Part shown: positions 1 through 24,384 of the stretch, in pieces
Layout of the letters: every line of letters starts with the position of its first letter
Numbering within the stretch: the first letter of the stretch is position 1
Origin: an uncultured Candidatus Saccharibacteria bacterium
GTDB taxonomy: Bacteria; Patescibacteriota; WWE3; UBA101185; UBA10185
Direction of reading: 5' to 3'
DNA length: 64,000 nucleotides
Assembly (NCBI GenBank): GCA_964385105.1
Contig: CAYLMU010000003.1
Span: forward strand, 2,470 to 66,469
Program-made: the position numbers and the translations under genes
The notes under the pieces: generated by a model
The model's database searches: none
Seen by the model: the letters and a program-made list of their open reading frames with translations, nothing else
Told to the model about the DNA's origin: nothing

Positions 1-2
1 GC

Positions 3-149: not shown

Positions 150-201
150 TTTAACAACAAATGTTAGTTCAAATTACATATTAAAACGAATATAATTCAT
201 A

Positions 202-3200: not shown

Positions 3201-6200
3201 TATAGAAACTGTTTCACCATATGTTAAATTCGGTTCAAGAGCTGCAAAAATTGCGGCATCAGCTGACACCACATTAGTAAACTCAGTGTCAATTGGTGCA
3301 AGTCCAAGCACCCACACCATGTCGTTGTACGCATACTTAGGCACTTCAGGCAGCGAAGGGGGTACAATTGACAACACTATTGCGCGTATTTTATGGGAAG
3401 GGACTTCACAAGCTTCTACCTCATATGAAGATGTAGGAGGAGGTTGGTGGAGGCTTACCTACTCTGCAACACCTACCGCCAGCACAACAAGTGATTTTGG
3501 AGTGTGGCTTGCCGAGGGCGAAACAATTTATGTAGACGGCTTTATGCTTGAAGAAAAACCAACTGCATCAACTTACACAGACGGCTCACTGGGAGCAGGT
3601 TATTCTTGGAGCGGAACTATTAACGAATCTTCCAGTTCAAGAGCAGCTGCTGACATTGATTACACTGCATCCGGTAATATTGACGCATCTAAAGGAAGTA
3701 TAAGTTTTTGGCTTAAACCCAACTGGGATGGCGATGACGGGGTTGAACACACTTTTTTTGATGTCGATACAGCATCCACATTTAAAATTTATAAAACAAG
3801 CTCAAATGTACTAACATTTACAGACGGAACAAATACAGCTACCACATCAACAACATCCTGGAATAAGGGTGATTGGCATCATATAGTTGCTACCTGGACC
3901 TCAGGTGATATGGATATATATGTAGATGCTTCTGCCGGAACAGATGATTCATATTCGGCACCAACGCTAGGTACTAACTTTTATATTGGGCAAAATAAAT
4001 CAAACACTTCGCATGCCTCAGCTGTAATTTCTAATTTAAGAATTTATGACTCGGTACTTAGCTCAGCACAAATCACTGACTTATATCACTCGAATTTATA
4101 TACTTTTGAACAAGAGTATTTTGTAGAAGCATTTATCGGAGATAAAGGACAAGATCCTATTACGATTTTACATATGGACGAAGCTTACGGTACAACTGTA
4201 CATGATGCATCACAGTATAGAAATGATTTTGGACTATCGGGTGCTTCTTGGGTAGCTGAAAGTTCTGTGACCGGAGGTACACTTAGAACCCGATACATAA
4301 ATTTTGACGGCACCAACGATTACTTAATTAACGAAAACACCGAAGATTTTAGGTTTGGAACTGACTCTTTTTCAATTTCCGGGTGGTTTAGACATCCCAT
4401 AACTGTACCGGATGGAGGAACAACGGACACAATATTAGCTCATTACGATACAACCGGATATAAAATCTATATGAATTCAAGCGGTCAGCTATGTTTTGGT
4501 ATTGATAACGATTCAACATGGTCACCCACCGATACAATTTGTTCTACTATGAGCTATGCTGACTCTACCTGGCATCACTTTAGTGCAGTTAAAACCGGAA
4601 CTTCAAGTATTGCAATTTACATAGATTCAACCCAAGTAGGACAGAACACGTCACTAAGTGCTACTGCTTCTCTATCGCATAATAAACCAATGTATATAGG
4701 TATTGATAGTAATGGTTCTTCTAACCCCTGGGAAGGTGATCTTGATGAAATAAGAATATACTCATACGCCAGATCAGAAGAACAAATTAAAATTGATTTT
4801 GCAGGGTCTTTCGGGGTAGCTTTTGGTACAGGTATTGAAAGTCAGTTGCAAAACGGCCTTGTAGCTCATTGGAAAATGGATGAAAATACAGGTACAACCT
4901 TAAGTGATTCAAGTGGCAATGCCAATAACAGCCAGAACTTTTCAGGAAACACAACGTGGGCACCCGGAAGATATGGTTCAGGATTGTTATTTGACGGCAA
5001 TAATGACGCTGTACTATTCAATGAAACACCTTCAACAGATTTAGGCGCTTTAACAGACTCCTACACAGTGTCCACTTGGTTTAAAACTACTACCAATGCC
5101 TCATCTACAGTTGTATTAGTTAATAAAGGTGTGGGAGCTGCGTCACCGATGAGTTTGGAACTTTCAGATACCGAGGTTGCCCAGTTTAGGATATTTGGTG
5201 GAGGCAACTCTTCATTAGCTGTAGGATCTGCTGCTCTAAACGATGGCAAATGGCATTTAATTACCGGGGTTAGAGATGTTAATGAAGACAAAGTGTTTAT
5301 ATATGTTGATGGTGAATTAGCAGGATTAACTACCGACACATTGACTTCAAGTGCTGCAAATGACAGTCAGCTATCACTCGGTGCAGCAGAAGATCTTTCG
5401 GGTGATTTTACAGGTACAATGGATGACACACGAATATACAATAGAGCCCTTTCTGCGAGTGAGGTTCAAATGCTGTATCAATATTCAGCGGCACCTGTGG
5501 GATATTGGGACTTCAATGTAGGAACCGGTACTGTTGCTCAAGATGTCTCAAATAACAAAAATGATGGTACTTTAACCGGCATGGTGTCGTGGATTCCAGG
5601 CATATTCGGTTCCGGAATAGATACAAATACCGCATCATCCGGTGTGGAAATTACAGACCCTCCCGGCGGAGAACTCGACTTTGATGCTGATGACAGTTTC
5701 ACATGGATGGGATGGGTAAAAACTACAAATATTGGTACTTCAAGTATATTTTTACAAAAAGGAAGAATAGAAAACAGTGTAGCAGGATACCGTGCACGAG
5801 TAGACACTTTCGGTAGAGCAAGTTGCGGCGTTTCAAATGCAGTAGACACAGGTACTACACAAATATCCGGAACCAGTGTAGTTGCAGATGGTATGTGGCA
5901 CCATGTTACTTGTGTTGATATATATACAGGCAACGCATCCCCGAATGATAGAAGACTTTTACTTTATGTGGACGGTGTGTTAGAAAACTCATTAATACAC
6001 TCTGAAGAAATAAGTAATTCAACAGAAAATTTAAACATTGGACATATAAATGCTGCTACGTATTGGCAAGGGCAAATTGATGAAGTTAAAATTTACAACT
6101 ACGCCCGAACTCCCGAAGAAATTATCAAGGATATGAATGCGGGTCATCCGACACCCGGCTCACCCATTGGGTCAGCATTGGGACATTGGAAATTTGATGA

Positions 6201-8325
6201 AGGCTATAGCAATATTGCACACGATTCCGGAATTTTAGGTAAAAACGGGACTATAACTAATGCTACCTGGTCTAATGATGCAAAACTGGGTAAATCTTTA
6301 AATCTTGATGGTACAGGTGATTTTGTGCAAGTAGGTGATGACGACTCTTATTCGTTTGGAAACGGTACTTCAGACAATCCTTTTACAATAAGTGCCTGGA
6401 TTAATAAAAACTCTACAGGAGGAGGCGATATTGTATCAAAATTCACATTAAACGGAGTTCACCTAGAATATAGACTGATTAACCCAAGTGGAAAAGATTT
6501 GGAATTTATTTTGTATGATGATTCGAGCACATCCAATATCGGAAGACGCGCAACATCAAAACTGCCTGACATAAGTGAATGGGTTCACATTGTTGGTACT
6601 TATAATGGGAATGGATCCACAAGCGGTATCAGGTTATACATAAATGGTGTACGCTCAGATGATACAAATATAATCAACGGAACTTATACGGCCATGGAAA
6701 ACACCACAGCGCCACTAGCATTCGGTGCAATTTCAACAGACGGCACACCGTCATCAGATATCCCAGCAAAACTTGACGATATTCGTATTTACACCTCAGA
6801 ATTTTCTCAAAGCCAAATCGACACCTTATATAATCTGGGGTTTGCACAATTATTAGGTGCAACCGGCAGTGATTTATCTGGAAGACCAACAGAATACTGC
6901 CCTCCCGGAGAAGTTCCTGCATGTACTGCACCTATTGCAGAATGGAAACTTGATGAGAACTTAGGTATTAGTGCCTTTGATACAAGTGGAAACGGAATTA
7001 CGGGTACTTTGGGGGGTGACGGTAGCGGGTCGGATATTCCTGTATGGAGACCCGGAAAAGTTGGACAATCCCTACTATTTGATGGCGTTGATGATTTTAT
7101 TAGCATGGGCGACCCTTCGAGCGGGATTTTGGACTTTGGCATTAGTTCGGCGTTCACTATTTCTTTATGGGTTAAAACTGATATTGACGCTATTACAGAT
7201 ACGTATCCTCTAATTATAAGTAAAGAGGGAGGTTCCCCTAGAAATGGTTACAATATACTGGCAAACCTTGCACAATATTCCAATAACTGGACAGGTCAAG
7301 TATTTGCTGGCGGAACGCAATATAACTGTGATAGCCTTGTAGATATAACTGATGGAAAGTGGCATCATCTGGCTTTTAAACACGTTTTCAATCTTTATGC
7401 TACATATACAGACGGGAAAATGACAAATATATGCACACTTACAAATTCAAATATTTCTAATTCAATGAGTTTTCATGTCGGAACACATTCAGTCCCCTTC
7501 ACAGGAAGCTACTTTAACGGTCAGATAGATAACATTCGAGTTTATAATTATACTAGAACCCCCGCACAAACGGCATGGGAATATAATCATGGAGCGCCAG
7601 GTGCCCATTGGAAATTTGATGAGTGCAGTGGTACTACAGCAAATGACTCCTCAGTCCGTAATTACCGGGGCACTATAAACGCCGGCGGTAGCGGCAGCAA
7701 CACAAGTGCTGGAACTTGCGGAGGAAGCCCAGGAACTATGTGGTCAGACGGTGCTGCAGGTAAACACAATGCGAGCCTGGAATTTGACGGTACCAATGAT
7801 TACGTGTCTGTCGGGGATGTAGATTATTTTGATTTGTCTCATATATTCTCAACATATACCTTCACCGGATGGTTCAAGAGATCGTCATTCAACACGCATG
7901 ATGTAATTCTTTCTAAGGATTCTGATATTATGAACAGTGCGGTGCCCGGTTATTCACTATATATAACATCGGATGACGTAGTGAAATTTTCAATAAAAGA
8001 TAAAAACAATAACTTAACCTCTGTAACCGGCTCATCTTTAATAACAGATTCTGAATGGTACCACGTCGCATTAGTGTTTTTCGGTAATGGTACAAACATA
8101 CCAGGAATAAGTTTGTATATTAATGGAAAACTTGAAGGTGAAAATACCGCAGGTGTATGGCTTTACGACTCTTCGAATAACCTTAGCTTCACCATTGGTG
8201 CTGAATCTGACGGCAACCACCCGTTCCATGGACAAATTGACGACGTTCGACTATTTTACTACGGCTTAACACCGGATCAAATTAAAACAGTTATGAATAA
8301 TGGCGCTGTAAACTTTATGCAATAA
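202..8325 (+). CDS. Giant (2707 aa) membrane-anchored surface protein. It has a single N-terminal TM helix followed by at least eight LamG-like (concanavalin A-like lectin/glucanase, Laminin_G_3-type) repeats.
   Basis: Uninterrupted 8.1-kb ORF. N-terminal hydrophobic segment FAFGALVVIVPVAYLLL. Recurrent modules of type W(K/H)(F/M)DE...G...D.SG.GN.G..G...W..G..G.AL.FDG.DD(Y/F)V....D...I(D/N)E(I/V)(R/K)IY(N/S)(R/Y)A(L/R)(S/T)..(E/Q)I, e.g. LDEIRISNTIRYS, DLDEIRIYSYARSEEQI, MDDTRIYNRALSASEVQMLY, IDEVKIYNYARTPEEI, LDDIRIYTSEFSQSQIDTLY, IDNIRVYNYTRTPAQ, IDDVRLFYYGLTPDQI. Thr/Ser/Asn/Gly-rich composition. No internal stops. The exact start is uncertain (202 or nearby Met). Confidence 0.75.
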   Translation: MHMLGKLKTKLAQLLIKILPYATKFVNLLKLFLNKIRHVRKQTVKKLAPFAFGALVVIVPVAYLLLNNTVEAEAGWWVTDTPWQKRHRLNLTNNSSENFAAGNTVSITVNTMQMYSNRELNADCSDLRILYQPNNNTQQELSRHVVFENDGDCTTSDATRVYFPLQANLNSGSSTRDYYVYYSNTQATSPSSQIDAYDISSVNALFACEFRGNANCVNSNGAVSPNTESGAVRFMGSKSALNFDGTGDYASAADSTSLSITDNLTVEAWVKLKQVDVEQTIVGKWDETTGTDNRSYRLYITSGNKFAFEISTDGTSATVTTITGSTTTASKGSWYHVAGVYNANNETLDLYVNGISDNTQVGSAGGEIDDNSSLLYIGGKENTSGIVNTLFMGILDEIRISNTIRYSTNGDAPESSFITDFNTMALYHMDEAGSDPRANGTTLDATTNNNDATLNGPTYVSGMVGIDGPSEFGSHTGANNSATLVDTNASWAPNEWVGYIVNNSTDASHGTITANTVNTITATLAGGEENDFDTGDLYALSPDLGKEVSQSFASRNGVFVEEATTNLIDNPSFENTTYDTSWSEGSGSGVIIATTRATANTGGGTQDITTSKLGGNTPKAVLIIATDTTTDGLATAGMSYSYGAATGTSNQWVSWQNTSDATTSNHRSAIETDNVICNTPPNVTVGAARCAYGQAAFSQFITNGVRLQWDTLKVPASAFYITVVFFAGSDVSAHANSFSLGDTTNGSVTTTAPGFQFDLLYGATTKNGYNVFNGGYGFAHFDGSTITQRAYIHHNRISAQSAWAFVRNDAIAGEIRPDTTGDIDYRAEVTNVSSTGFTIRTTGAGGNNTPFVYLALDFGDTVDSWVGTHSTPTSTGNYSDTGPGFTPQYTLMIPNYVEALNTKADDAKAGSFGFSVIDALNQYSNSYTFQDATSPSNTSSLANNKAVHILSDNQTTSSIQGDFVSFDTAAGWTTNYTAVTGNSKRWPAASVQSITYLTRTIETVSPYVKFGSRAAKIAASADTTLVNSVSIGASPSTHTMSLYAYLGTSGSEGGTIDNTIARILWEGTSQASTSYEDVGGGWWRLTYSATPTASTTSDFGVWLAEGETIYVDGFMLEEKPTASTYTDGSLGAGYSWSGTINESSSSRAAADIDYTASGNIDASKGSISFWLKPNWDGDDGVEHTFFDVDTASTFKIYKTSSNVLTFTDGTNTATTSTTSWNKGDWHHIVATWTSGDMDIYVDASAGTDDSYSAPTLGTNFYIGQNKSNTSHASAVISNLRIYDSVLSSAQITDLYHSNLYTFEQEYFVEAFIGDKGQDPITILHMDEAYGTTVHDASQYRNDFGLSGASWVAESSVTGGTLRTRYINFDGTNDYLINENTEDFRFGTDSFSISGWFRHPITVPDGGTTDTILAHYDTTGYKIYMNSSGQLCFGIDNDSTWSPTDTICSTMSYADSTWHHFSAVKTGTSSIAIYIDSTQVGQNTSLSATASLSHNKPMYIGIDSNGSSNPWEGDLDEIRIYSYARSEEQIKIDFAGSFGVAFGTGIESQLQNGLVAHWKMDENTGTTLSDSSGNANNSQNFSGNTTWAPGRYGSGLLFDGNNDAVLFNETPSTDLGALTDSYTVSTWFKTTTNASSTVVLVNKGVGAASPMSLELSDTEVAQFRIFGGGNSSLAVGSAALNDGKWHLITGVRDVNEDKVFIYVDGELAGLTTDTLTSSAANDSQLSLGAAEDLSGDFTGTMDDTRIYNRALSASEVQMLYQYSAAPVGYWDFNVGTGTVAQDVSNNKNDGTLTGMVSWIPGIFGSGIDTNTASSGVEITDPPGGELDFDADDSFTWMGWVKTTNIGTSSIFLQKGRIENSVAGYRARVDTFGRASCGVSNAVDTGTTQISGTSVVADGMWHHVTCVDIYTGNASPNDRRLLLYVDGVLENSLIHSEEISNSTENLNIGHINAATYWQGQIDEVKIYNYARTPEEIIKDMNAGHPTPGSPIGSALGHWKFDEGYSNIAHDSGILGKNGTITNATWSNDAKLGKSLNLDGTGDFVQVGDDDSYSFGNGTSDNPFTISAWINKNSTGGGDIVSKFTLNGVHLEYRLINPSGKDLEFILYDDSSTSNIGRRATSKLPDISEWVHIVGTYNGNGSTSGIRLYINGVRSDDTNIINGTYTAMENTTAPLAFGAISTDGTPSSDIPAKLDDIRIYTSEFSQSQIDTLYNLGFAQLLGATGSDLSGRPTEYCPPGEVPACTAPIAEWKLDENLGISAFDTSGNGITGTLGGDGSGSDIPVWRPGKVGQSLLFDGVDDFISMGDPSSGILDFGISSAFTISLWVKTDIDAITDTYPLIISKEGGSPRNGYNILANLAQYSNNWTGQVFAGGTQYNCDSLVDITDGKWHHLAFKHVFNLYATYTDGKMTNICTLTNSNISNSMSFHVGTHSVPFTGSYFNGQIDNIRVYNYTRTPAQTAWEYNHGAPGAHWKFDECSGTTANDSSVRNYRGTINAGGSGSNTSAGTCGGSPGTMWSDGAAGKHNASLEFDGTNDYVSVGDVDYFDLSHIFSTYTFTGWFKRSSFNTHDVILSKDSDIMNSAVPGYSLYITSDDVVKFSIKDKNNNLTSVTGSSLITDSEWYHVALVFFGNGTNIPGISLYINGKLEGENTAGVWLYDSSNNLSFTIGAESDGNHPFHGQIDDVRLFYYGLTPDQIKTVMNNGAVNFMQ

Positions 8326-8436
8326 GTACAAGTATATAGTTTCTCATTAGAGAAATGTCATACTTTTACATTATTGACACTACACTACTTGCACATGTAA
8401 CCTGAATGCACTTAGTAATTATTTACGGGAGTGAAC

Positions 8437-10716
8437 ATGAAACAAAATGCCCTAGTGATTGAAAAAATAATCAATCTCTTCATAATTGGCACAACCCTCT
8501 TAATGCCCATTTTTTTCTTACCCATAACAACCGAGTTTTATGAGATTAATAAACTCGCCCTCTTAACAGTATCAACTTTGGTTTTAGCAGTGCTCTGGGG
8601 ATTGAAACTTATTTTCAGTCAAAAGGTGTATGTGATTAAAACCCCAATTAATCTCGCTATCATAATATATTTGGCGGTATTCATACTCGCCACTATATTC
8701 TCGAACAACTTTTATCTAAGCATGTTCGGACAATACGCAAGATGGTTTCCTAGTTTATTTTCTTTTGTGACTGTGGTGGTATTCTTTTATATTGCGGCCA
8801 TCAACATTACAGATGAAAAAACTATAAACAACATTTTGTTTGCACTTATAGCGGGAATTACAATAAACACAATTGTAGGTCTTTTAAGCTACTTTGGTGT
8901 TTATTTATCGGGTAATGCATACGCACAGACACCTAACTTTTCACTAGTAGGCAATCCGACTACCGCTGCGATACTAGCAGCTATAGCTGTTATCATTGGC
9001 ATAAATAAATTGCTAAACATTACTTTTATGCCCGGTAGAATACTCTTGGTTCAGCTCGTTATTGTAAATGCTGTGCTGCTGGTTCTTTACGGCATATTTG
9101 CAGCGTGGTTTGTTCTTGCAATCGGTTTAATCTCAACCTTTGTAATGACAAGAACAGAAAAAATAACGAGTAATGCGATTTTTCTAACAGTAATAGCAGG
9201 AGCAGTTGCAGCGTTATTACTTGTTGTTTCAATGCCAAGAACCAAAGAATTAGTAATAAATGATAACTTTGCAAAGGAAATTAAACTGGACTTTAACAGT
9301 TCATGGATAATTACCGGCGCCACAGTTACAAATGACGCTCTTTTAGGTTCAGGGCCGGCAACATTCCAGAACAATTTCACGTTGTACCGACCCTCGGAAT
9401 TAAATGCAACTGATTTCTGGAACATCAGATATGACAAACCCTACAATGAGATTTTTAACATAATGTCTTCATTGGGAATCTTTGGTGCTATTGCCGCAGC
9501 ATATCTTGGAATAAAAATATTTCAGGAAATCTTGGCAACAAAATCTAACAAAGATGATAGTGGTTTAAATGTGATGTTAAGTGCTTCAACTCTTGCTATG
9601 TTGAGTATGGTTGCAGTTACATATATAACAGTGCTAAGTGCATTTGTTTTATTTGTATTACTGGCATTAACCACAGCGTATAATGCAACGCATACAAAAA
9701 GCAAAACCGACAGGGTTTTACTAAGTTTAGCCTCGCTAAGTACTATGTCATTGCTTGAAAGCCTTGGTGGTAATGATACAAATGAAATACTTCAATATAT
9801 TGTTACCGTACCGTTGCTAATATTTGCAGGTCTATGGGGGTATTTCTTGTACCAAACATATACACCTGAATATTATATGAGAAAATCGGCTATAGCTATC
9901 CAGGCAAATGACGGACTTGGAGTATACAACAACCAAAGACGAGCTTTGGAAATCAACGGAAGAAGATCTGAATACCGTAACGCATTCGCTCAAACAAATC
10001 TGGCAATTGCTAATGCCTTAGCTCAAGGTGAAAATGTTAATGATGAAACCAGACTTAACATACAAAATCTTATAGCTCAAGCAATCAGAGAGGTTAAGAT
10101 TTCAACTGAAGTCTTGAATCCAGGCAGTGCAGCCAACTGGGAAGTTCGAGCAAGTGTCTATAGATCTCTAAGAGGTGTTGCTCAAAATTCAAGTCAGTGG
10201 GCATTGCAGGCATATGATGCTGCAATACAACTTGACCCTACAAACCCAAGATTAAGACTTGAAGCAGGAGCTGTATATTATGCAGAACAGGACTTTTTAT
10301 CAGCAGCCAATATGTTTAGACAAGCTGCAAATCTAAAGCCTGATTATGCAAATGCACACTTTAATATGGCACACTCATTAAAACAGATGCAAAACTATCC
10401 TTTAGCACAAAGAGAATTTCAGATAACACAAACTTTAGTTGAAAGAGATTCGGAAGATTATGCTCTGTTACAAAGAGAGCTTGAAGATATTGCTGAACTT
10501 GCAGCTAGTACAGCAGACAACACGCAAGAAAACATTCCTACCGTTGAAGAACTTGAACAACAGCAACAACTTCAAGAACAAAGCCAGCCGTCTGCACAAG
10601 GACCTCTTGTAGCACCTGAGCAAGTGGTTGCTCCTCAAAGTCAAAGCTTAGACTTAAGCCCTGAAGAAGCAGAAGAAATACAAGAACAGAATCAAAACCA
10701 AACCGAACAAGAGTAA
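8437..10716 (+). CDS. Polytopic membrane protein with a C-terminal TPR-repeat region and a Q/E-rich tail. It is possibly an O-antigen ligase/polymerase-like (Wzy_C-type) protein.
   Basis: At least 10 predicted TM helices in the first ~480 aa. The C-terminal soluble part has TPR-like repeats (AYDAAIQLDPTNPRLRLEAGAVYYAEQDF..AANMFRQAANLKPDYANAHFNMAHSL). ATG at 8437 lies 6 nt after the SD GGGAG (8426-8430); the ORF track's GTG at 8431 is an alternative. The family call is an inference from architecture only. Confidence 0.5.
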   Translation: MKQNALVIEKIINLFIIGTTLLMPIFFLPITTEFYEINKLALLTVSTLVLAVLWGLKLIFSQKVYVIKTPINLAIIIYLAVFILATIFSNNFYLSMFGQYARWFPSLFSFVTVVVFFYIAAINITDEKTINNILFALIAGITINTIVGLLSYFGVYLSGNAYAQTPNFSLVGNPTTAAILAAIAVIIGINKLLNITFMPGRILLVQLVIVNAVLLVLYGIFAAWFVLAIGLISTFVMTRTEKITSNAIFLTVIAGAVAALLLVVSMPRTKELVINDNFAKEIKLDFNSSWIITGATVTNDALLGSGPATFQNNFTLYRPSELNATDFWNIRYDKPYNEIFNIMSSLGIFGAIAAAYLGIKIFQEILATKSNKDDSGLNVMLSASTLAMLSMVAVTYITVLSAFVLFVLLALTTAYNATHTKSKTDRVLLSLASLSTMSLLESLGGNDTNEILQYIVTVPLLIFAGLWGYFLYQTYTPEYYMRKSAIAIQANDGLGVYNNQRRALEINGRRSEYRNAFAQTNLAIANALAQGENVNDETRLNIQNLIAQAIREVKISTEVLNPGSAANWEVRASVYRSLRGVAQNSSQWALQAYDAAIQLDPTNPRLRLEAGAVYYAEQDFLSAANMFRQAANLKPDYANAHFNMAHSLKQMQNYPLAQREFQITQTLVERDSEDYALLQRELEDIAELAASTADNTQENIPTVEELEQQQQLQEQSQPSAQGPLVAPEQVVAPQSQSLDLSPEEAEEIQEQNQNQTEQE

Positions 10717-10744
10717 CAAAGTGGTCAATTACGGATTGCTAAAA

Positions 10745-10771
10745 CCTCCGGCACAACCGGAGGTTTTTTTA
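10745..10771 (+). terminator. Rho-independent terminator downstream of the membrane/TPR gene.
   Basis: Perfect hairpin cctccggcacaaccggagg (10745-10763) followed by ttttttt. Confidence 0.7.
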
Positions 10772-10787
10772 TTCTGCACTATTTTAC

Positions 10788-10817
10788 TTGACACAACACA
10801 AAAATTAGTTAAACTAG
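10788..10817 (+). promoter_or_regulatory. Candidate sigma70-type promoter for the rplJ-rplL operon, followed by a ~130-nt leader.
   Basis: TTGACA at 10788-10793, ~16-17 nt spacer, TAAACT-like -10. The leader before rplJ is consistent with L10(L12)4 autoregulatory leaders. Not computationally verified. Confidence 0.3.
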
Positions 10818-10951
10818 TTAATGTTAAGCCAAAGACAGCAAGTGTCGTATGAAATAATAAAATTAAAGCGACTTAATTATCTTGCCGAGGTTAATCAAAA
10901 GTAATACTTCACTACTCTACCTTTTGACTAATCAAGGCAAAAAATATAAAA

Positions 10952-11491
10952 ATGCCAAATCAAAAAAATATAGATACAGTAGAAAAATTAAAAACTAATG
11001 TAAGTAAGGCAAAATCTATAGTCTTTGCCGACTATCATGGTTTAACCGCACAATCCATTACTGAGTTAAGAGCAAAATTAGGCGAAGTTGACTCAGAAGC
11101 AAGTGTTGGAAAAAACACACTCGTAAAAATCGCCCTAAAAGAAAACAATTACGATGATCCAAATATGGAAAATTTTATGAAGGGACCAACTTTAACTGTC
11201 TTTTCATATGAAGATCCGGTTGCAGGTGTAAAAGCCTTATTTGAATTTTCAAGTTCACATGAAGATTTACCAAATGTGAAAGCAGGTATTATTGACGGAA
11301 GATTCACCAACCTTTCAGATCTTAAAACATTAAGTAATCTTCCTTCAAGAGATGAACTCATTGCTAAAGTCGTAGGTGGCATGAAGTCGCCACTTTTTGG
11401 CATAGTAAATACTCTTGGCGGAGTTCAAAGAAATTTTGTATATGTTTTGTCAGCAGTAGCTGAAAAGAAAAAAGAAGAGGAGGTGCAATAA
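10952..11491 (+). CDS. rplJ: 50S ribosomal protein L10.
   Basis: N-terminal ...DTVEKLKTNVSKAKSIVFADYHGLTAQSITELRAKLGEV..GKNTLVKIALKE is a typical L10 sequence. Immediately followed by rplL. Confidence 0.9.
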   Translation: MPNQKNIDTVEKLKTNVSKAKSIVFADYHGLTAQSITELRAKLGEVDSEASVGKNTLVKIALKENNYDDPNMENFMKGPTLTVFSYEDPVAGVKALFEFSSSHEDLPNVKAGIIDGRFTNLSDLKTLSNLPSRDELIAKVVGGMKSPLFGIVNTLGGVQRNFVYVLSAVAEKKKEEEVQ

Positions 11492-11494
11492 ATT

Positions 11495-11908
11495 ATGGCA
11501 GAAGATACAAAAGTAGAATTAACAGGTAACGCTCAAAAAGTAATGGAAATGGTAGAAAAGATGACAGTTTTAGAGCTTAATGATTTAGTTAAAGCATTAG
11601 AAGATAAATTTGGTGTTTCAGCAGCTGCACCAATGATGGTAGGAGCTATGCCGGCTGCAGCGTCAGGAGATGCATCAGCAGTCGATGAAGATCAAACAGA
11701 ATTTGACGTAGTATTGGCAGATGCCGGGGCTAATAAAATTGCTGTTATTAAAGCAGTTCGAGAAATAGATCAATCAATAGGTTTAGTAGATGCTAAGAAA
11801 TTGGTTGAGTCTGCTCCTAAAACAATATTAGAAGGCGTTAATAAAGAGAATGCAGACGCTGCAAAAGCAAAGTTAGAAGAAGTTGGTGCAAAAGTAGAGT
11901 TAAAGTAA
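11495..11908 (+). CDS. rplL: 50S ribosomal protein L7/L12.
   Basis: [11 protein letters not shown]...[32 protein letters not shown] (Ala-rich hinge) ...[64 protein letters not shown]. Strong SD GAGGAGG upstream. Confidence 0.95.
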
Positions 11909-18405: not shown

Positions 18406-18480
18406 TGGTGCCCCCGGCAGGAATTGAACCTGCATTTTACCCTTAGGAGGGGTATGTTCTATCCGTTGAACTACAAGGGC
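18406..18480 (-). tRNA. tRNA-Arg(CCU) with encoded CCA.
   Basis: Reverse complement GCCCTTGTAGTTCAACGGATAGAACATACCCCTCCTAAGGGTAAAATGCAGGTTCAATTCCTGCCGGGGGCACCA folds as a cloverleaf: acceptor with two G-U pairs, D-arm GTTC/GAAC, anticodon stem TACCC/GGGTA, loop CUCCUAA giving anticodon CCU, T-arm GCAGG-TTCAATT-CCTGC. Confidence 0.7.
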
Positions 18481-18555: not shown

Positions 18556-18643
18556 GGAGGGGTGCAGGAGTGGCTTATCTGGCCGGTCTTGAAAACCGTG
18601 CATGCGCAAGCATACGAGGGTTCGAATCCCTCCCCCTCCGCCA
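18556..18643 (+). tRNA. tRNA-Ser(UGA) (class II, long variable arm) with encoded CCA.
   Basis: GGAGGGG...CCCCTCC acceptor. G73 discriminator. Anticodon loop CUUGAAA gives UGA. Variable arm ATGC-GCAA-GCAT. T-arm GAGGG-TTCGAAT-CCCTC. Confidence 0.75.
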
Positions 18644-20341
18644 TGTGGAATTGATAGCTTCTTGAAGTTCTTTTTTGCTTGTTATACCAGCCAATACTTT
18701 GGGTTCTAACTGTTGTTTTATCTCTTGTATCTCATTCAATCCTTTTTCAATTAAGAAGAAGTGTTTTTGCTTATCAAACCATAGTTTTTTGTCTTTTAAT
18801 TTTAGGTTCAAACCAAGTGATTGAAGTATTTGTGTTTTGGTATTTGAATCTCCATTTTTAAGCCAGTAGTTAGCATATCTAGCAAAATTAAATGCTTTTT
18901 CTGTGTTTTCCGTTGCTGTTTCAACCCTGTTGTTATTATCGTTAATTAAATCCTCAACTTCTTTTATTCTTGATAGCAAATCTTTTCTTTGTAATACATA
19001 TTCCTGTTCTGAAATTCTACTACCATCTCTATTTTCAGGGGATACTTTAAGTTTAAGTAGTTCTTTTAGGGAATATTGTAAGTTCTCTAATTCTACATTC
19101 AGCCCGTTACAAGACTTTCTAATAACATTAAAATCAACGTCTGTAACTTCGTGAATATATTTGATAGCAAGATTCAAAAAGTCATCATCTATTTCAAATT
19201 TGCTTATTTCAGCCTCAATAGTTTGCTCTAAATTATCAACTCTCATAGCCTTTTCAGTGCAGTTAGGATTTGTCTTTTTAGCACAAGAAAGATATACATA
19301 ATGTAGGATTTTTGGATTATCCATTTGTTCAATTAGCATTCCACAATTAGTACAAGCATTTCTATCTTGGGTTTTAGCAAATTTAGTTTTACAGTTACTA
19401 CAAATTACTTGCCATTTCTCATGTGCTGTAATACTTCCTCCACAACCACCACAAACTAAAGCCTTTTTATATGGAAAATCCTTATCTTTTGAATAATGAC
19501 TTCTAGTTTTCTTACCAAGTCTAATTTGAAGCGTATTAAACTCATCAATTGTTAGCATTGCAGGGTGTTTACCCCAACATTCACCATCTTTACGTTGAAT
19601 ATAGCCATATATAAAGGGCTTAGATAGAAAGCGATACCAAGCAGTTCTACTCATTGGCTTTCCACCTTGTTTAAAAGATTTTCTAGTTTTAAATCCCCAT
19701 TTATCATTAAGAATATGCAGGGCTTCCATAAGGGAATAGCCCTCGTAGATTATTAAATAAATTGCTTTTTGTATTAAATCAAAAGAAACAGGGTCTTTAT
19801 CAATAGACTTTTCCTTTGTATAAGGGTTTGTAACATTAATATATCCTTGCAATGCTTGGGTTGGAATATATCCTTCTCGTAACTTTTTTCTATTTCCTCT
19901 TTTTACATTTTGGGATTTATCATCACTATCTTTTTTAGCCATGCCAAATTCAATAGTAAGCAGTAAAACATCGGAAGAATCACCAGTAAAAATCTTGTAG
20001 GGTGTTCTTAACTCTAAAATTTTGCCTGTACTCATTAAATACAAGAAGTCTCCTGCATCTTTTGGGTTTCTGCTTATTCTATTTGGTTGCCAACATAAAA
20101 CCCCATTTGCCTCACCTTTTTCTATTCTTTTTAGCATTTCATTAAATCGTGGTCTGCCTATTTTGTATGCACTCTGTGCCTCTGAAAATACCCCTACAAT
20201 CTTTAACCCTAGTTTTCTAGCATATTCTCTTAGTTCTTCCTCTTGTGCTTCTAGGGAAAGGATTTGTCTATCTTCTTCCTCGCTACTTTTACGAATATAT
20301 AAGAAGTATCTTTTTTCAATTTCTAGAATTTCATTAAACAT
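18575..20341 (-). CDS. Large serine recombinase (resolvase/invertase-type catalytic domain + recombinase domain + zinc ribbon + coiled-coil). The annotated C-terminal ~25 aa are translated from the antisense of tRNA-Ser.
   Basis: N-terminal YIRKSSEEEDRQILSLEAQ (catalytic Ser motif). Cys cluster CGGCGGS...CSNCK...CTNCG (zinc ribbon). Long coiled-coil region. The ORF 3' end (18575-18643) is antisense to the tRNA. Confidence 0.85.
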   Translation of the reverse strand: MFNEILEIEKRYFLYIRKSSEEEDRQILSLEAQEEELREYARKLGLKIVGVFSEAQSAYKIGRPRFNEMLKRIEKGEANGVLCWQPNRISRNPKDAGDFLYLMSTGKILELRTPYKIFTGDSSDVLLLTIEFGMAKKDSDDKSQNVKRGNRKKLREGYIPTQALQGYINVTNPYTKEKSIDKDPVSFDLIQKAIYLIIYEGYSLMEALHILNDKWGFKTRKSFKQGGKPMSRTAWYRFLSKPFIYGYIQRKDGECWGKHPAMLTIDEFNTLQIRLGKKTRSHYSKDKDFPYKKALVCGGCGGSITAHEKWQVICSNCKTKFAKTQDRNACTNCGMLIEQMDNPKILHYVYLSCAKKTNPNCTEKAMRVDNLEQTIEAEISKFEIDDDFLNLAIKYIHEVTDVDFNVIRKSCNGLNVELENLQYSLKELLKLKVSPENRDGSRISEQEYVLQRKDLLSRIKEVEDLINDNNNRVETATENTEKAFNFARYANYWLKNGDSNTKTQILQSLGLNLKLKDKKLWFDKQKHFFLIEKGLNEIQEIKQQLEPKVLAGITSKKELQEAINSTWRRGRDSNPRMLAHARFSRPAR

Positions 20342-20364
20342 AGTTTCCTTTTTTCTTCGTTGTG

Positions 20365-20373
20365 ATTATATCA
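20365..20373 (-). promoter_or_regulatory. Extended -10 promoter element (TGaTATAAT) for the recombinase gene.
   Basis: Reverse complement of 20365-20373 is tgatataat, ~27 nt upstream of the recombinase ATG, followed by an AAAGGAA SD-like sequence. Confidence 0.35.
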
Positions 20374-20397
20374 CTGTATTTCTTTCTAACTTTCCTA

Positions 20398-20542
20398 GTT
20401 TAACCGCTATTAGATAATCGGTTAAACACAAATTTAATACTTTTGCTTATAAGAGGGAAAATGGCGTGTGCATTTTCCCTCAAATCCCATTGTTTTGGTT
20501 GTTACAGTCGTCAAGGGCGCTACCGCGCCTATCCTTGACGAC
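20398..20542. promoter_or_regulatory. Cluster of three perfect inverted repeats between the recombinase and the 362-aa cargo gene. Candidate operator, origin (ori/oriT) or attP-derived site of the element.
   Basis: IR1 gtttaaccg-N12-cggttaaac (20398-20427). IR2 gggaaaatg-N7-cattttccc (20455-20479). IR3 gtcgtcaagg-N16(GC-rich)-ccttgacgac (20507-20542). Confidence 0.45.
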
Positions 20543-20549
20543 CCCAATA

Positions 20550-21638
20550 CTAAAGTGTGTTTCTTAAGTTTTGTAGTAGTTCCATAACGTCTGTATCGGG
20601 GGCGTTTACAGCAAGATTACTTGGTATTTTTAAATCAAATTTAAAATCTTTTAATGTGTTAATTATTCCTATATCAGCATTTTTCAACAAATCCAAGCGT
20701 TTTTTAACAGTGCTTAAAGTTAAATTATCTTCAAGGATAATTCTATTTTGCTTTTCCTGTGTTTTATCCGCACAATACCAAGTGTTTACAAACTGAAACA
20801 GATTTATAGCCTTCTTCTTATCGTAAACCGATTGTAGTTTGTTAAAAACTTCAATCATATCCATAGACTCATAATTGTTCGTTTTTACAAGTTCTGATAA
20901 TGACTGCTTAAGTAAATCCTCAATAATGTTGGTATCACGTATTCTGGTATAGTTGCTATCTTTCTCACCAAACACCTGTTGAATTTTCTTTTTGTGCATG
21001 GTTACTTCTGTTCTAAAGATACCTTCACTAAACTCATGTAATTTATATGCAAAGTTTGGGTCTATTTTTCTAATATCTTTAAAGTCGTGGGCTTTAAATT
21101 CCGGCTGTTTCTGATAAAACTTAAGTTTATATGTATTACCCCAATAAGTTAGCGATTCATCATCAATTAAAATCTTCTTTTTTCTTGGATATTCATAACT
21201 TGAAAGATTAGTGATAATACATTTACACTCTACATTTGATAGCAATTTCCAAGCGTAACAAATATCAAGTCTTTGAAGTATCCACAAAAATGGGTCTGGT
21301 AGTGTTATTTCATAAAACTGTTCAAGAATATGTTTTACTTTTTGCAATACATCAACAATTTTATCGGGATAAAGCATAAAGATATTTGTTCCATACATTA
21401 CTTTTGGTGCTGAAAATTCAATAAATATGTTATCCCAATTAAATGCAGATACATATATTTGATATCCATTTTCTTCTATAATTGGTTTTGAATAGTAGTA
21501 ACTTCCTTTTTTCTCATAAGTGTTTGTTTCTTCTTCCTGTATCTCTGGTTCAATTTCTCTTTTTTCATAGAATTTCTTTTTACAAACATCAAAAATATCT
21601 TTATTACTTGGGATTTTCCATCGGGTAGTGTCTAACAT
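20550..21638 (-). CDS. Hypothetical protein (362 aa), cargo of the integrated element. Possibly replication/maintenance-associated (speculative).
   Basis: Long ORF with normal protein-like composition. No recognisable catalytic motif. Located between the recombinase and a wHTH protein, with the IR cluster immediately 3'. Confidence 0.5.
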   Translation of the reverse strand: MLDTTRWKIPSNKDIFDVCKKKFYEKREIEPEIQEEETNTYEKKGSYYYSKPIIEENGYQIYVSAFNWDNIFIEFSAPKVMYGTNIFMLYPDKIVDVLQKVKHILEQFYEITLPDPFLWILQRLDICYAWKLLSNVECKCIITNLSSYEYPRKKKILIDDESLTYWGNTYKLKFYQKQPEFKAHDFKDIRKIDPNFAYKLHEFSEGIFRTEVTMHKKKIQQVFGEKDSNYTRIRDTNIIEDLLKQSLSELVKTNNYESMDMIEVFNKLQSVYDKKKAINLFQFVNTWYCADKTQEKQNRIILEDNLTLSTVKKRLDLLKNADIGIINTLKDFKFDLKIPSNLAVNAPDTDVMELLQNLRNTL

Positions 21639-21787
21639 TTTTCCCCCTTTGGAATTGGTCTGTAAATTAGTTTGAAGAAATTAAGAAATTGCAGGAATAG
21701 TTTTTCCGCTTCGTTATCAGTTAGTTCTATTTTGAATTTCTTGGAATACAGTTGTTTAAACTCCTGTATTGCTTGTTTGCTTAGCAT
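21632..21787 (-). CDS. Small ORF (51 aa; MLSKQAIQEFKQLYSKKFKIELTDNEAEKLFLQFLNFFKLIYRPIPKGEKC). Its stop overlaps the start of the 362-aa gene (ATGTTAG), suggesting translational coupling.
   Basis: Read directly from the sequence. Below the 60-aa ORF-track cutoff. Predicted helical small protein (regulator or Xis-like?). Confidence 0.3.
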   Translation of the reverse strand: MLSKQAIQEFKQLYSKKFKIELTDNEAEKLFLQFLNFFKLIYRPIPKGEKC

Positions 21788-21834
21788 AACTAAGCCCAAG
21801 CGTAGTGCTTAACAGGGGTTATGTTGCAACAGTT

Positions 21835-22404
21835 CTAGTCGTTATGTTCTTGTTCTAAAATTCTTCGCTTTACGGCTAATCTATAAGCTCCTTTGCCGTA
21901 TGATTCTATTCCTACAAAAGGGGATAATTTTGGGTAGTTTTTTAGTTTGTTTTGAAGATTGTTTAAAGTTGCTCTTGCTTTATCAGGGCCACAACCAAGT
22001 TGTTTAGCAATTAATTGAGTTTCTACAAATTCTCCCTTTGCGTCTGTTAATAGTTTAAATGCATTCTTTGCTTTGCTATTTTTCTTTTCAAAATCAATCT
22101 TTCCAAATCTTCCAAATTTATAGTATGTAAAGTTTCCACCCCACGAGAAATCAACAGGAAATTCTTTTCCCTTTAATGTATCAATAAATACTGGTTCTAT
22201 TTTCTCTTTTTTGGTAAGTAGTTTCTTTACTAATCCTGCAAACTCAAGTGGTGTTCTTACATCATGTTTTAAGGCTAAATACAGTCTTACTGCAATAACA
22301 CCCAATATCATTGCAAATACCCACCAAATTCTAATTACAGCCTCAAAAAAAGCTTTAGGAACACTATCCCACATTGTGTTTACTATTTCGTTATACATTT
22401 CCAT
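21835..22404 (-). CDS. Membrane-anchored protein with a C-terminal winged-helix DNA-binding-like domain.
   Basis: N-terminal TM (IWWVFAMILGVIAVRLYLAL). C-terminal ...FVETQLIAKQLGCGPDKARATLNNLQNKLKNYPKLSPFVGIESYGKGAYRLAV resembles wHTH regulators. Confidence 0.5.
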   Translation of the reverse strand: MEMYNEIVNTMWDSVPKAFFEAVIRIWWVFAMILGVIAVRLYLALKHDVRTPLEFAGLVKKLLTKKEKIEPVFIDTLKGKEFPVDFSWGGNFTYYKFGRFGKIDFEKKNSKAKNAFKLLTDAKGEFVETQLIAKQLGCGPDKARATLNNLQNKLKNYPKLSPFVGIESYGKGAYRLAVKRRILEQEHND

Positions 22405-22450
22405 ATATTTAATTTTGAGCAGGGGAATACATTGCTATTTTACTATATAA

Positions 22451-22497
22451 AACAAAAAAGCTCAGAACACCTGCATATGATTGCAAAATGTCTGAGC
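22451..22497 (-). terminator. Rho-independent (bidirectional-type) terminator 3' of the GC-rich gene.
   Basis: agctcaga...tctgagct 8-bp stem flanked by aaaaaa on one side and T-run on the other. Reverse complement gives stem then tttttgtttt. Confidence 0.5.
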
Positions 22498-22530
22498 TCT
22501 TTTGGTACTGCTTTCCTGACGTGTCGCCGA

Positions 22531-22923
22531 TTACCGTGCCGAAATGAACGCGTCGCGGTCGTACCAAACGCCCTTGTAGAACATCATGAAGCGCTCGTTA
22601 TGCCCCTCGTCGTACACGGTCGTCCAGAAGCCCGAAGTTTCCTTCGTCCAGCCGGCGGGTGCTTCGACTTCATAGAACAAATCGTCGTGGGTTTCCTTGA
22701 CCTTGAAGCCGAGACCTTCCAGATAGGGCTTGCTGTCGGGACCACTCGAAGCGCGGGCGTTCAGTTTGCGGGCGAGCATCCACTTGGCGCTTTCCGCAAT
22801 ACGGCGCTGTTCCGACTCCTCAATCCGCACGTTATCCCGCGCGGTGCGACCAGAAACGGTCATGGTGTCGGGGACTTCATCAGGGTTCGTACCAGGCTTA
22901 TACTTAGCCATTCTAACCTCCAT
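22531..22923 (-). CDS. Hypothetical 130-aa protein encoded by a conspicuously GC-rich (~55-60% GC) cassette with GC3-biased codons. Probably recently acquired from a high-GC donor.
   Basis: Strong SD (GGAGGTTAGAATG) and own terminator. The composition contrasts sharply with the ~35% GC surroundings. An overlapping plus-strand ORF (22432-22953) looks like a GC-driven shadow ORF. Confidence 0.55.
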   Translation of the reverse strand: MEVRMAKYKPGTNPDEVPDTMTVSGRTARDNVRIEESEQRRIAESAKWMLARKLNARASSGPDSKPYLEGLGFKVKETHDDLFYEVEAPAGWTKETSGFWTTVYDEGHNERFMMFYKGVWYDRDAFISAR

Positions 22924-23405
22924 TTGGGTAGTTTTGGATATGACTTATTATAACACACTATAGGGTTAGTAGCAACTTTTATAGTTGTTGATTGGTTGCC
23001 ATATATTAGCACATTCTGTGATAAAATGGGTTCTAACTTGGTATATAGTCGCCCGCCAGTTGTTTAAATCGCCTTTTTTTGATGCTAAATGTACCTATTA
23101 ATATGACTTGTTGTATTGATATGACGATATTTCTTTATCTTTAATGTTTAATTTCCAAAGTTGCTTGTGCTGATTCCTTGGGAAATTTGCTTAACTGCTC
23201 TTTTATGAGTAATTGCTAGGTATATCTCTACCACCCTTAGTATTTCCATATATTCATCACTACGTATATAATCTCTGAATATAAATCTATCAAAAAGGGA
23301 TAAAAGTGTATTTATTAATTTATCGTAGCCAAGTTGATTAATTGTGCGACCTATAGTATAGTTAGCGCTAGAAATTATTGTTAAGGATAAGATAGGGAGT
23401 TGAAA

Positions 23406-23570
23406 ATGAACAAGTCAGGCAAAGTTCGTTTTATTCGTCGTAGTGTGATTTCCTTGGCCATAGGGTGGTCAGTTTCCAGAATTTGGTTCGTTCCTCCTGT
23501 TACGGAAAGGGATCTCGTCGTCGTGCTGGTAATGTTGGTGATCATCTACATCCTGCATTACGCAGAATAA
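23406..23570 (+). CDS. Small hydrophobic ORF (54 aa; MNKSGKVRFIRRSVISLAIGWSVSRIWFVPPVTERDLVVVLVMLVIIYILHYAE), GC-elevated.
   Basis: SD-like GGGAG 8 nt upstream. Two predicted TM segments. Below the ORF-track cutoff. Speculative. Confidence 0.3.
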   Translation: MNKSGKVRFIRRSVISLAIGWSVSRIWFVPPVTERDLVVVLVMLVIIYILHYAE

Positions 23571-23796
23571 ATAGAAGATTTCACCACTAACCCAAACCCC
23601 AACTGGTTAACTACCAAGTTTTCCATGAGGGGTTTTCTTTTTATAAACCTTTTCCCAGTGATAAGATATTTATTGGATACATGGATAAATATTTTCCAAT
23701 ATCACTCCATGCTATCCGCCATAACACTGTAAATTTTAAATATGTAAAAATTCCATAAAAAAAGCTCGGGAGTCTCACTTTTATGCTAGCTAATTT

Positions 23797-24384
23797 TTAA
23801 TAATTATACAAATCCTCGTGCACCCTTTTATACGTCACCAACTCTTCAGGCTTAAACCACAAATTAATCTCTTCCTCAGCCTCCTCAATCGTACCAGATG
23901 CATGAATCATATTATAAATAGTTCTTTTTCGCAGTAGGCTGGTTATTGGCAATTCAAGCCCATAATCCCCTCTTATTGTGCCGGGTTGTGCTTCAAGTGA
24001 AAACGTAGGGCCAACCAATCTTCGTACCTTTTCAACAGCATGCGGACCTTCTAAAACAAATCCAAAAACCGGCCCCATTGTTATATAATCAACATTTGCT
24101 TTATTTACCATATCACCAATTGTTTCTGGATCATTTGTTCCGTAATATTCAGTAATATCTAAACCATGCATTTCGGCATCTTCAATGCGTAAATTTCCAA
24201 CCTTAATTTTCCATTCACTATCTTTTTTGTAATGATTAGCCACTTTTTCGGCATCGGCCATAAACAACTTCGCACCAACCATCTTAAGCCCGGCTCTTTC
24301 AAACCGGTTCAAAATTTCACCAATTATTCCGCGTTGTACCGCATCGGGTTTTATTAAAATTAAAGATCGTTCTACCACCACCAT
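23797..24384 (-). CDS. ndk: Nucleoside diphosphate kinase (longer than usual, ~195 aa, with an internal insertion).
   Basis: ERSLILIKPDAVQRGIIGEILNRFERAGLKMVGAKL... and C-terminal NMIHASGTIEEAEEEINLWF match NDK signatures. Confidence 0.85.
   Translation of the reverse strand: MVVVERSLILIKPDAVQRGIIGEILNRFERAGLKMVGAKLFMADAEKVANHYKKDSEWKIKVGNLRIEDAEMHGLDITEYYGTNDPETIGDMVNKANVDYITMGPVFGFVLEGPHAVEKVRRLVGPTFSLEAQPGTIRGDYGLELPITSLLRKRTIYNMIHASGTIEEAEEEINLWFKPEELVTYKRVHEDLYNY

Follow-up and report, generated by a model that had tools for sequence, protein, structure and literature searches.

A putative tRNA-Ser-targeting rolling-circle mini-replicon with a large serine recombinase, next to a decayed sibling, in a Candidatus Saccharibacteria genome

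In a 64,000-nt stretch of contig CAYLMU010000003.1 from an uncultured Candidatus Saccharibacteria bacterium (hereafter, the window), the segment 18644-23052, denoted element A, is most probably a 4.4-kb tRNA-targeting integrative rolling-circle mini-replicon that lies in tandem with a decayed sibling, element B. Under this reading, to which we assign a probability of about 0.78, element A couples an integration module, the large serine recombinase (LSR) LSR-A, to a module for rolling-circle replication; it also encodes a membrane-anchored winged-helix protein and has a single cargo cassette that can be exchanged. The locus was compared gene by gene with related genomes and metagenome contigs (labelled L001-L043; L002 is contig JAHZTK010000104.1 of assembly GCA_020047475.1, L038 is JGI Ga0172370_10012435 and L042 is a Logan contig of SRR22388145). 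An initial annotation of the window had proposed an integrated element driven by an LSR and inserted at tRNA-Ser(UGA), and the comparison supports this interpretation in substance, with refinements. That the recombinase drives the element, and that the element integrates, excises and forms a circle, is what the arrangement of the sequence suggests.

An intact tRNA-Ser(UGA/tga) gene occupies positions 18556-18643 on the plus strand (ARAGORN; Rfam tRNA, 48.5 bits), and the 588-codon LSR-A gene (18575-20341) lies at its 3' end on the minus strand, at the coordinates originally given. The two genes overlap in antisense, as the initial annotation had stated, but the overlap of ~25 codons that it gave shrinks to 22 codons plus the stop, that is, 69 nt (18575-18643) encoding W567-R588. 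The TGG codon of W567 is the antisense of the tRNA-encoded CCA and is followed by RRGRDSNPRMLAHARFSRPAR and the stop codon, so that the end of the open reading frame (ORF) is the exact antisense of tRNA-Ser from CCA onwards. Beyond the tRNA-derived tryptophan, the tails of homologues differ completely, depending on the abutting tRNA. The C-terminus of LSR-A is thus a read-through, as had been suspected. The protein has an N-terminal resolvase catalytic domain with a Y-x-R-x-S motif (PF00239; E 8.6e-20, 71.8 bits against a cut-off of 23.3), and its residues 9-332 align with PHROG 95, 'integrase' (E 3.6e-52). In an alignment of 33 LSR sequences including LSR-A, Y15, R17, K18, S19, R63, R88 and R91 are invariant, as are eight cysteines at positions 297-361; the recombinase keeps every conserved catalytic residue. 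Its catalytic domain also aligns with those of the TP901-1 and SPbeta integrases, and its likeness to solved LSRs is limited to this domain (E 1e-4 to 1e-5).

A search for long direct repeats flanking the element gave chance-level matches only, as expected for a serine integrase, and the limits of element A were therefore placed by homology breakpoints. Direct copies of a 6-bp core, CCGCCA (TGGCGG on the LSR strand), begin at three places, 18638, 23053 and 23716. This core is the tRNA's 3' end: the last two bases of the acceptor stem, the discriminator G and CCA. Copy 3 (18638-18643, plus strand) is an attL-type P(A)/core/tRNA junction, which on the LSR strand (site 3, 18643-18638) reads ...ATCAATTCCACA/TGGCGG/AGGGGGAGGGATTCGAACCC and joins the LSR-A tail to the tRNA; the same junction is seen in L001 and L002. 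Copy 2 (23053-23058, plus strand), a P(B)/core/P'(A) junction, joins the tail of the LSR-B gene of element B to the left end of element A (site 2, 23058-23053, ...GGCGATTTAAACAAC/TGGCGG/GCGACTATATACCAAGTTAGAACC... on the LSR strand) and is homologous, across the junction, to L002 7040-7085. Copy 1 (23716-23721, plus strand), a host B arm/core/P'(B) junction at the outer end of the array, joins DNA on the side of the chromosomal ndk gene to the left end of element B (site 1, 23721-23716, ...TTTACAGTGTTA/TGGCGG/ATAGCATGGAGTGATATTGG... on the LSR strand). Here, the homology with L002 starts exactly at TGGCGG and the ndk-side sequence is unrelated.

Homology between the window and L002 starts or stops precisely at the cores, the P'(B) breakpoint being present in both. 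The left end of element A (22915-23052, minus strand), which comprises the P'(A) half-site GCGACTATATACCAAGTTAGAACC and a promoter-like site, is 91% identical to that in L039. The P'(A) arm recurs in seven metagenome contigs as well as in L039 and L041, and in all nine aligned contexts, similarity begins at TGGCGG and the left flanks are unrelated. The window, L002 and L036 have an LSR-B tail as this flank, L041 has one of LSR#1 type, and L032, L033, L035, L038 and L039 have non-LSR, presumably host, DNA. These breakpoints place the probable limits of element A at 18644 and 23052 (4,415 bp core to core), well short of the ~23800 to which the initial annotation had extended it. The tRNA-Ser gene's 3' end is identical to that of element-free relatives and the full tRNA is detected after insertion; strand exchange placed within the 6-bp CCGCCA would keep the tRNA intact, and tRNA-Ser (the acceptor 3' strand and T-arm) would form the B' half of the attachment site.

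Comparison with relatives supports the view that element A is a foreign insertion at the 3' end of tRNA-Ser. Four Saccharibacteria-labelled metagenome-assembled genomes (L003, L004, L006 and L007), found via a neighbouring sortase gene (61-64% identical), have an unoccupied tRNA-Ser(tga) with ordinary genes beside it and neither LSR nor Rep. The genomes with these empty sites are separated from the window by roughly a genus or family and are not conspecific with it. The proteins of the element are far more alike between the window and L002 (74% identity for the LSR and 80% for a 55-residue protein) than are those of the hosts (ArgRS, 29%; metallophosphatase, 35%; NDK, 53%). In L002, a gene set comprising a homologue of the 189-residue protein described below, the 55-residue protein, Rep and LSR reads into tRNA-Ser(tga) and is preceded by a different LSR-plus-Rep element.

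About 850 bp of DNA before ndk had been described as ORF-poor. The 873 bp before ndk indeed contain no convincing ORF, but what lies beyond element A is not plain spacer: by collinearity with element B of L002, most of it is apparently a decayed second LSR-plus-Rep element that used the same tRNA end. This remnant (23059-23715, minus strand; 663 bp) retains the 3' end of the LSR-B gene, the start of a 301-codon gene and the left end, P'(B). Positions 23633-23721, covering the left end, match L002 2640-2726 (85% over 89 nt, blastn), positions 23217-23324 match L002 3545-3659 (74%, blastn), and the start of the 301-residue protein of L002 element B is recognizable at 71% over 31 residues. LSR-B residues 406-426 and 458-514, within its last ~110 codons, match window positions 23215-22990 at 53-67% (tblastn). 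Some 300 bp in the central part of the remnant (window 23381-23570) have no counterpart in element B of L002; this part contains two overlapping ORFs of 54-56 codons on opposite strands, and its G+C content is slightly elevated. An Rfam scan of the ORF-poor stretch gave no match. With the element B remnant beside element A, the locus is a tandem array like that in L002, where, within positions 1-11800, three LSR genes lie in 12 kb: one reads into tRNA-Ser(gga) (1392-1482), followed by an element with LSR-B and REP_ORF2-G2P (2640-7052), which has an LSR-tail remnant at its own left, and then by an A-type element that reads into tRNA-Ser(tga). Tandem arrays at tRNA-Ser thus appear to be recurrent. 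Removing both elements from the window would give an empty site consisting of tRNA-Ser, ~75 bp and a convergent ndk, the kind of site that the initial annotation had predicted; the ~75-bp spacer between the array and the ndk stop codon (23722-23796), presumably host DNA, would be the original 3' flank of tRNA-Ser, a flank found in no relative.

All genes of element A are on the minus strand. Next to LSR-A, as also in L001, L002 and L036-L038, is a gene (20550-21638) for a 362-residue protein that the initial annotation had listed as unknown and that profile searches identify as a rolling-circle Rep of the Phage_CRI/G2P family (PF05144, residues 48-223, 41.4 bits against a cut-off of 21.7, E 1.7e-10; phrog_702, 'replication protein', E 1.9e-15). 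The small ORF proposed to be translationally coupled to it (21632-21799) encodes 55 residues from TTG, or 51 from ATG, and its stop overlaps the Rep start. The 55-residue product has no Pfam or PHROG family match, but it is the best-conserved accessory protein of the element family (65-80% identical in L001, L002, L036 and L038); that it is a recombination directionality factor or a Rep cofactor is only a guess.

The next gene (21835-22404) encodes 189 residues, which had been described as a membrane-anchored winged helix-turn-helix protein. Prediction indeed gives a long hydrophobic helix at the N-terminus and a winged helix at the C-terminus, so that this description is modestly supported: the match to HTH_36 is below threshold (E 0.04), whereas the AlphaFold model (predicted local distance difference test, pLDDT, 71-89 over residues ~101-180) has an H-H-H-beta-beta topology and, in Foldseek, resembles the winged helices of ScpB, ArsR and MarR (best E 1.5e-3, probability 1.0, root mean square deviation 1.9 A over 79 columns). 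The G+C-rich gene noted at the outset (22531-22923, 130 codons) belongs to a putative cargo cassette (22460-22914) with 57% G+C compared to 37% in the window. In L039, a different, 357-bp cassette encoding 70 residues takes its place in an element that is otherwise 91-93% identical. The 130-residue family is rare, with eight homologues that are G+C-enriched within their own genomes; distant matches are in Gordonia phage VanLee, Brevundimonas jumbo phages and C. botulinum plasmids. The protein has no Pfam, PHROG or PADLOC match, and its confident AlphaFold model (pLDDT 84.8) matches no fold in the PDB with E below 0.39. An origin of this gene from an actinobacterial host of Saccharibacteria is unsupported, in view of homologues from genomes with 39-43% G+C and from a mixture of phages and plasmids.

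We propose that LSR-A recombines an attP overlapping its own gene's 3' end with an attB formed by the last ~35 bp of tRNA-Ser(UGA) and its 3' flank. Strand exchange would occur within the 6-bp CCGCCA (acceptor-stem end, discriminator and CCA) and leave the tRNA intact, and integration would make the LSR ORF run antisense into the tRNA, such that the ~29 last residues of the native protein (RATIYQVRTHF...CY) are exchanged for 21 tRNA-encoded residues after the shared W567. The zinc-ribbon domain probably reads TTCGAACC in attB and the look-alike TTAGAACC, 5 bp further out, in attP. Once excised, the circle would undergo rolling-circle replication. Packaging and conjugation genes are absent from the element, and for its transfer between cells, natural transformation or hitch-hiking with filamentous phages would be a guess.

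The initial annotation had anticipated that the native C-terminus, in the excised form, may differ from the annotated one, and this native form can be reconstructed from the other end of the element. Fusing the LSR-A coding sequence with P'(A) through the core yields a 596-residue protein, ...STWRATIYQVRTHF...CY, ending in ...INSTWRATIYQVRTHFITECANIWQPINNYKSCY. The attP(A) junction so reconstructed is ...GCTATCAATTCCACA/TGGCGG/GCGACTATATACCAAGTTAGAACCCATT, a composite attP would read P(A)/TGGCGG/ATAGCATGGAGTGATATTGG, and the empty attB would read ...TTTACAGTGTTA/TGGCGG/AGGGGGAGGGATTCGAACCC. The reconstructed WRATIYQVRTHF tail resembles that of homologue P0036 (WRRTIYDVITYF, ...SWRRTIYDVITYF). 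Past the tryptophan, homologue tails range from 3 to >30 residues and are unrelated between targets, which suggests that the tails are probably dispensable. Most simply, the tail swap is a by-product of siting attP right where the gene ends; a regulatory role would be conceivable, but nothing supports it.

Several observations weigh against the mini-replicon reading or against parts of it. The core is not rare, with 13 copies of CCGCCA on the plus strand of the window, so that the three cores are meaningful only jointly with the homology breakpoints. In Pfam, LSR-A itself does not match the recombinase domain (PF07508) or the zinc-ribbon domain (PF13408) at E 0.01, the sole related match being Zn_ribbon_3 (E 0.0017), whereas homologues 38-48% identical to it do carry both domains. 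On manual inspection, the left half-sites (P and B arms) contain no convincing inverted copy of TTCGAACC. No recombination directionality factor was identified, and neither was a replication origin, for which no search was made. The circular junction that the initial annotation had expected was absent from the JGI metagenomes and IMG/VR: a search with the P'(A) pattern, which would reveal a free circle or an attP(A) junction, returned seven metagenome contigs, each of them integrated or tandem, and had no match in IMG/VR, and the short contigs L001, L009 and L010 lack a terminal overlap. No strain-level empty site was found, the only other contig with an identical ndk protein being 100% identical to the window. 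Finally, neither right-hand site is a canonical attR for LSR-A, site 2 having P(B) in place of the host B arm and site 1 having P'(B) in place of P'(A), which makes present-day excision competence uncertain.

The non-canonical right-hand sites and the lack of a detected free circle would also fit an immobile relic, that is, an array that is vertically inherited and decays in place, with LSR-A moving nothing. Such a relic is further suggested by the reduction of the adjacent element B to 663 bp, by the presence in L033 of only ~690 bp between the P'(A) junction and tRNA-Ser, and by the B-A order shared by the window and L002. However, none of the five ORFs of element A is disrupted, LSR-A has retained the full set of family-invariant residues, and the similarity of element proteins between the window and L002 greatly exceeds that of host proteins. 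Moreover, the element end in L039, with its other cargo cassette, is 91-93% identical to that in the window but lies beside a flank that has no match in the window, and in L038 (6928-9330, in LSR sense), the N-terminal 316 residues of the LSR are 98% identical to those of LSR-A, whereas Rep is only 45% identical and resembles the L002 Rep. This combination of a nearly identical LSR with a divergent Rep points to recent exchange and to reshuffling of integration and replication modules between elements. We accordingly consider the relic unlikely and retain the mobile mini-replicon as the preferred reading.

A second alternative, which we also regard as improbable, concerns the role of the G2P protein: element A could be an integrative mobilizable element in which this protein is mainly a relaxase, or a satellite that a helper inovirus packages. 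Pfam and PHROGs searches revealed no transfer genes in the element itself, and precedents are reported: Rep-like rolling-circle proteins that act as relaxases in some integrative mobilizable elements (PMC5704250) and a rolling-circle plasmid that is an inovirus satellite (bioRxiv 10.1101/2023.11.28.569023). However, this assignment is by analogy only; neither a helper element nor a type IV secretion system or oriT was recognized in the window, and PHROG 702 is annotated as a replication protein. Still less probable is a defective filamentous (inovirus- or plectrovirus-like) prophage left with Rep and LSR after loss of its coat and morphogenesis genes: PF05144 is the filamentous-phage gene II protein family, phiRSM integrates at the 3' 13 bp of tRNA-Ser via a serine recombinase (PMC4471427), inoviruses have been predicted in Candidate Phyla Radiation bacteria (PMC6813254) and the 189-residue protein has a membrane helix, but in Pfam and PHROGs no ORF of element A matches a pI/Zot morphogenesis ATPase or a coat protein, only ~1.5 kb of coding space lies outside the LSR and Rep genes, the phiRSM integrase is of the small resolvase type rather than an LSR, and the same compact set (189-like, 55-residue, Rep and LSR) recurs in L001, L002, L036-L038 and L039, which indicates a stable minimal architecture rather than a one-off deletion.

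Beyond the single locus, the most interesting part of the analysis is the attachment-site architecture of the integrase clade as a whole. Among the candidates scored, 475 matched the clade at E <= 0.001, and tails were classified in the 120 best homologues (from WWE3, Woesebacteria, Levybacteria and others). A T-loop-antisense signature (D/E-S-N-P) was found in 58 of the 120, a stop exactly four residues past the anchor in 30, and an attP-type tail with V-R-T in 19; the remaining 13 were unclear. The first two classes together, 88 of the 120 homologues, were counted as reading into tRNA genes, with tRNA-Ser, tRNA-Gln and tRNA-Trp verified. All three of the four-residue tails checked in the DNA (L011, L042 and L043) are tRNA antisense, in which the T-stem sequence xTAGG provides an in-frame TAG; the tRNA abutting the LSR of L011 is tRNA-Gln (ARAGORN). 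Further verified cases are a homologue 31% identical on the viral contig L018, which reads into tRNA-Trp, and the third LSR of L002, which reads into tRNA-Ser(gga). Read-through in so many homologues argues for a property of the clade rather than an accident of the window locus. The tails 'WLGD', 'WLRG' and 'LLPG' were considered as excised forms and rejected, since all three homologues checked in the DNA proved to be tRNA read-throughs ended by the T-stem TAG. We found no paper describing this integrase clade in Patescibacteria, in a literature library that is itself incomplete.

In every tRNA junction, the T-loop motif TTCGAACC (TT[C/A]GAACC) starts 11 nt after the core, whereas in four independent attP-type junctions (window site 2, L002 7053, L010 and L020), a look-alike motif starts 16 nt after the core; an attP-type tail of this sort is also present in L016. 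The V-R-T codons, GTT CGA ACC or GTT AGA ACC, are a copy of the T-loop sequence TTCGAACC. In serine integrases, the motif of the zinc-ribbon domain lies 5 bp closer to the centre in attB than in attP (Rutherford et al. 2013, PMC3783163). The offsets of 11 and 16 nt match this 5-bp rule in the right half-sites, and for these half-sites we infer that the zinc-ribbon domain would read T-loop DNA.

A broader proposition, which we advance tentatively and rate at slightly under even odds, is that the clade, which is large and found mainly in the Candidate Phyla Radiation, is specialized for tRNA 3' ends, with the universal T-loop sequence GGTTCGAA as the attB motif, a mimic of it placed 5 bp further out in attP, and attP itself situated inside the 3' end of the integrase gene. 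If so, each integration would swap the C-terminal tail for a tRNA-antisense peptide, the 'VRT' peptide would really be a DNA motif, and minimal replicons (with Rep here and Prim-Pol in L042) would use this module and pile up as arrays and scars at tRNA-Ser. In a stronger version, the tail swap would be a switch between integration-competent and excision-competent forms.

A further copy of the motif was observed inside the LSR genes. The tripeptide [F/L]-E-P, which is nearly invariant in the clade, corresponds to L545-E546-P547 of LSR-A, with codons at window positions 18702-18709, and is encoded by TTAGAACC in LSR-A and by TTCGAACC in L011. This 8-mer is the att motif itself, in direct orientation, starting ~66 nt upstream of the core.

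With respect to mechanism, the system looks like a canonical serine integrase, judging by its apparent domain set, short core and motif shift between attP and attB. It shares with the phage-type LSRs (those of Listeria A118/LI, phiC31, Bxb1, TP901-1 and SPbeta) the resolvase domain, a Cys-rich, putatively zinc-binding region, short att sites without a long repeat, and a recognition motif whose distance from the centre is 5 bp greater in attP than in attB. It differs from phage-type LSRs in that the apparent target of LSR-A is the 3' end of a tRNA gene, attP lies inside the LSR-A ORF so that the protein tail changes on integration, and the carrier is a 4.4-kb rolling-circle replicon rather than a tailed phage. 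Among small integrative elements, the actinomycete integrative and conjugative elements of the pSAM2 type are similar to element A in that a site-specific integrase directed at a tRNA gene is paired with a rolling-circle Rep and that integrated and replicating circular forms alternate, but they have a tyrosine integrase with Xis, transfer genes, another Rep family and a different host phylum. The Mx8 integrase also targets a tRNA gene; 112 of its residues are replaced on integration, and in SSV1 the integrase gene is split. As in element A, the integrase ORF spans attP in Mx8 (IntP/IntX) and in SSV-type elements, and the gene is altered or split on integration (PMC4383910). However, these are tyrosine recombinases, with other chemistry and longer segments of identity, and the change in their proteins is large, whereas LSR-A swaps only a short, non-conserved tail.

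The closest functional analogues are phiRSM1 and phiRSM3 of Ralstonia solanacearum, in which a rolling-circle replicon employs a serine recombinase at the 3' end of tRNA-Ser with a 13-bp core (PMC4471427). Their integrase, however, is of the small resolvase/invertase type, they are complete inoviruses of ~9 kb with coat and assembly genes, and their attP lies between two genes, in contrast to that of element A inside the integrase ORF. The Tycheposons of Prochlorococcus are alike in being small, located at tRNA genes including tRNA-Ser(tga), equipped with their own replication genes and swappable cargo, arranged in arrays and present in streamlined genomes; they differ in that 910 of 937 use tyrosine recombinases and the rest an LSR (bioRxiv 10.1101/2020.12.28.424599), and in that their replication genes encode primases, helicases and polymerases, whereas element A has a G2P Rep. 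In a survey of mapped serine-integrase islands, 14 of 297 were located at t(m)RNA genes, a use that the survey described as unreported until then and in need of proof (PMC7192596).

Where large DNA is to be inserted into genomes, serine integrases are the main tools; in nature, they usually target idiosyncratic protein-coding genes. A clade reading tRNA 3' ends would provide integrases with predictable landing sites because the T-arm is conserved, and a T-loop mimic in attP would supply a simple rule for telling attP from attB. The present observations also bear on the question why tRNA genes are frequent targets of tyrosine integrases but rare ones of serine integrases (PMC7192596). They suggest that tiny, streamlined, uncultured bacteria carry active-looking mini-replicons that swap their cargo cassettes, move across wide host distances and leave a tRNA gene flanked by arrays of scars. 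In terms of annotation, they account for integrase ORFs that end in ...RDSNP-type peptides and for contigs that break there. Many contigs with these integrases, such as L042, L043, L018, L019 and L020, end within ~20 nt of the tRNA junction or inside the tRNA, and assemblies seem to break at the att core, hiding such elements and their flanks in metagenome bins.

In L042 (genes 2427-4745 and 6001-7779), an LSR of the same clade reads into tRNA-like sequence with the T-stem CTAGG and is linked to a 772-residue Prim-Pol protein in place of a rolling-circle Rep; this partner indicates that the integrase module serves several kinds of small replicon.

In element A, the promoter-like sequence TTGCTA-17-TATAAT (22975-22947), which faces into the operon, merely fits the consensus, and the region is not enriched in such matches; promoter and terminator scans of the region gave matches no more frequent than in shuffled sequence.

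The host context is formed by ndk (23797-24384, minus strand; PF00334, E 9e-38) on one side, with the ndk-metallophosphatase-argS block syntenic in relatives, and by tRNA-Arg(cct) (18406-18480, minus strand; ARAGORN, also Rfam) on the other. In L002, L004 and L007, ndk is followed closely downstream, on its own strand, by tRNA-Ser(tga), and L033 has an equivalent arrangement beside the metallophosphatase gene, whereas in the window and in L006, tRNA-Ser and the DNA 3' of it are inverted and abut tRNA-Arg(cct). It thus appears that tRNA-Ser and the downstream island have been flipped between ndk and tRNA-Arg. An element that carries its own tRNA-Ser, or that inverted it, was considered and rejected: L006 has the orientation of the window without any LSR, so that the inverted tRNA-Ser need not stem from this element.

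The ~690-bp stretch of L033 (2550-3359), between the P'(A) junction and tRNA-Ser(tga), is a near-complete deletion scar of an A-type element. In L032, P(B)-like, P'(A)-like and P'(B)-like pieces surround tRNA-Ser(gga), and such scars seem to be common.

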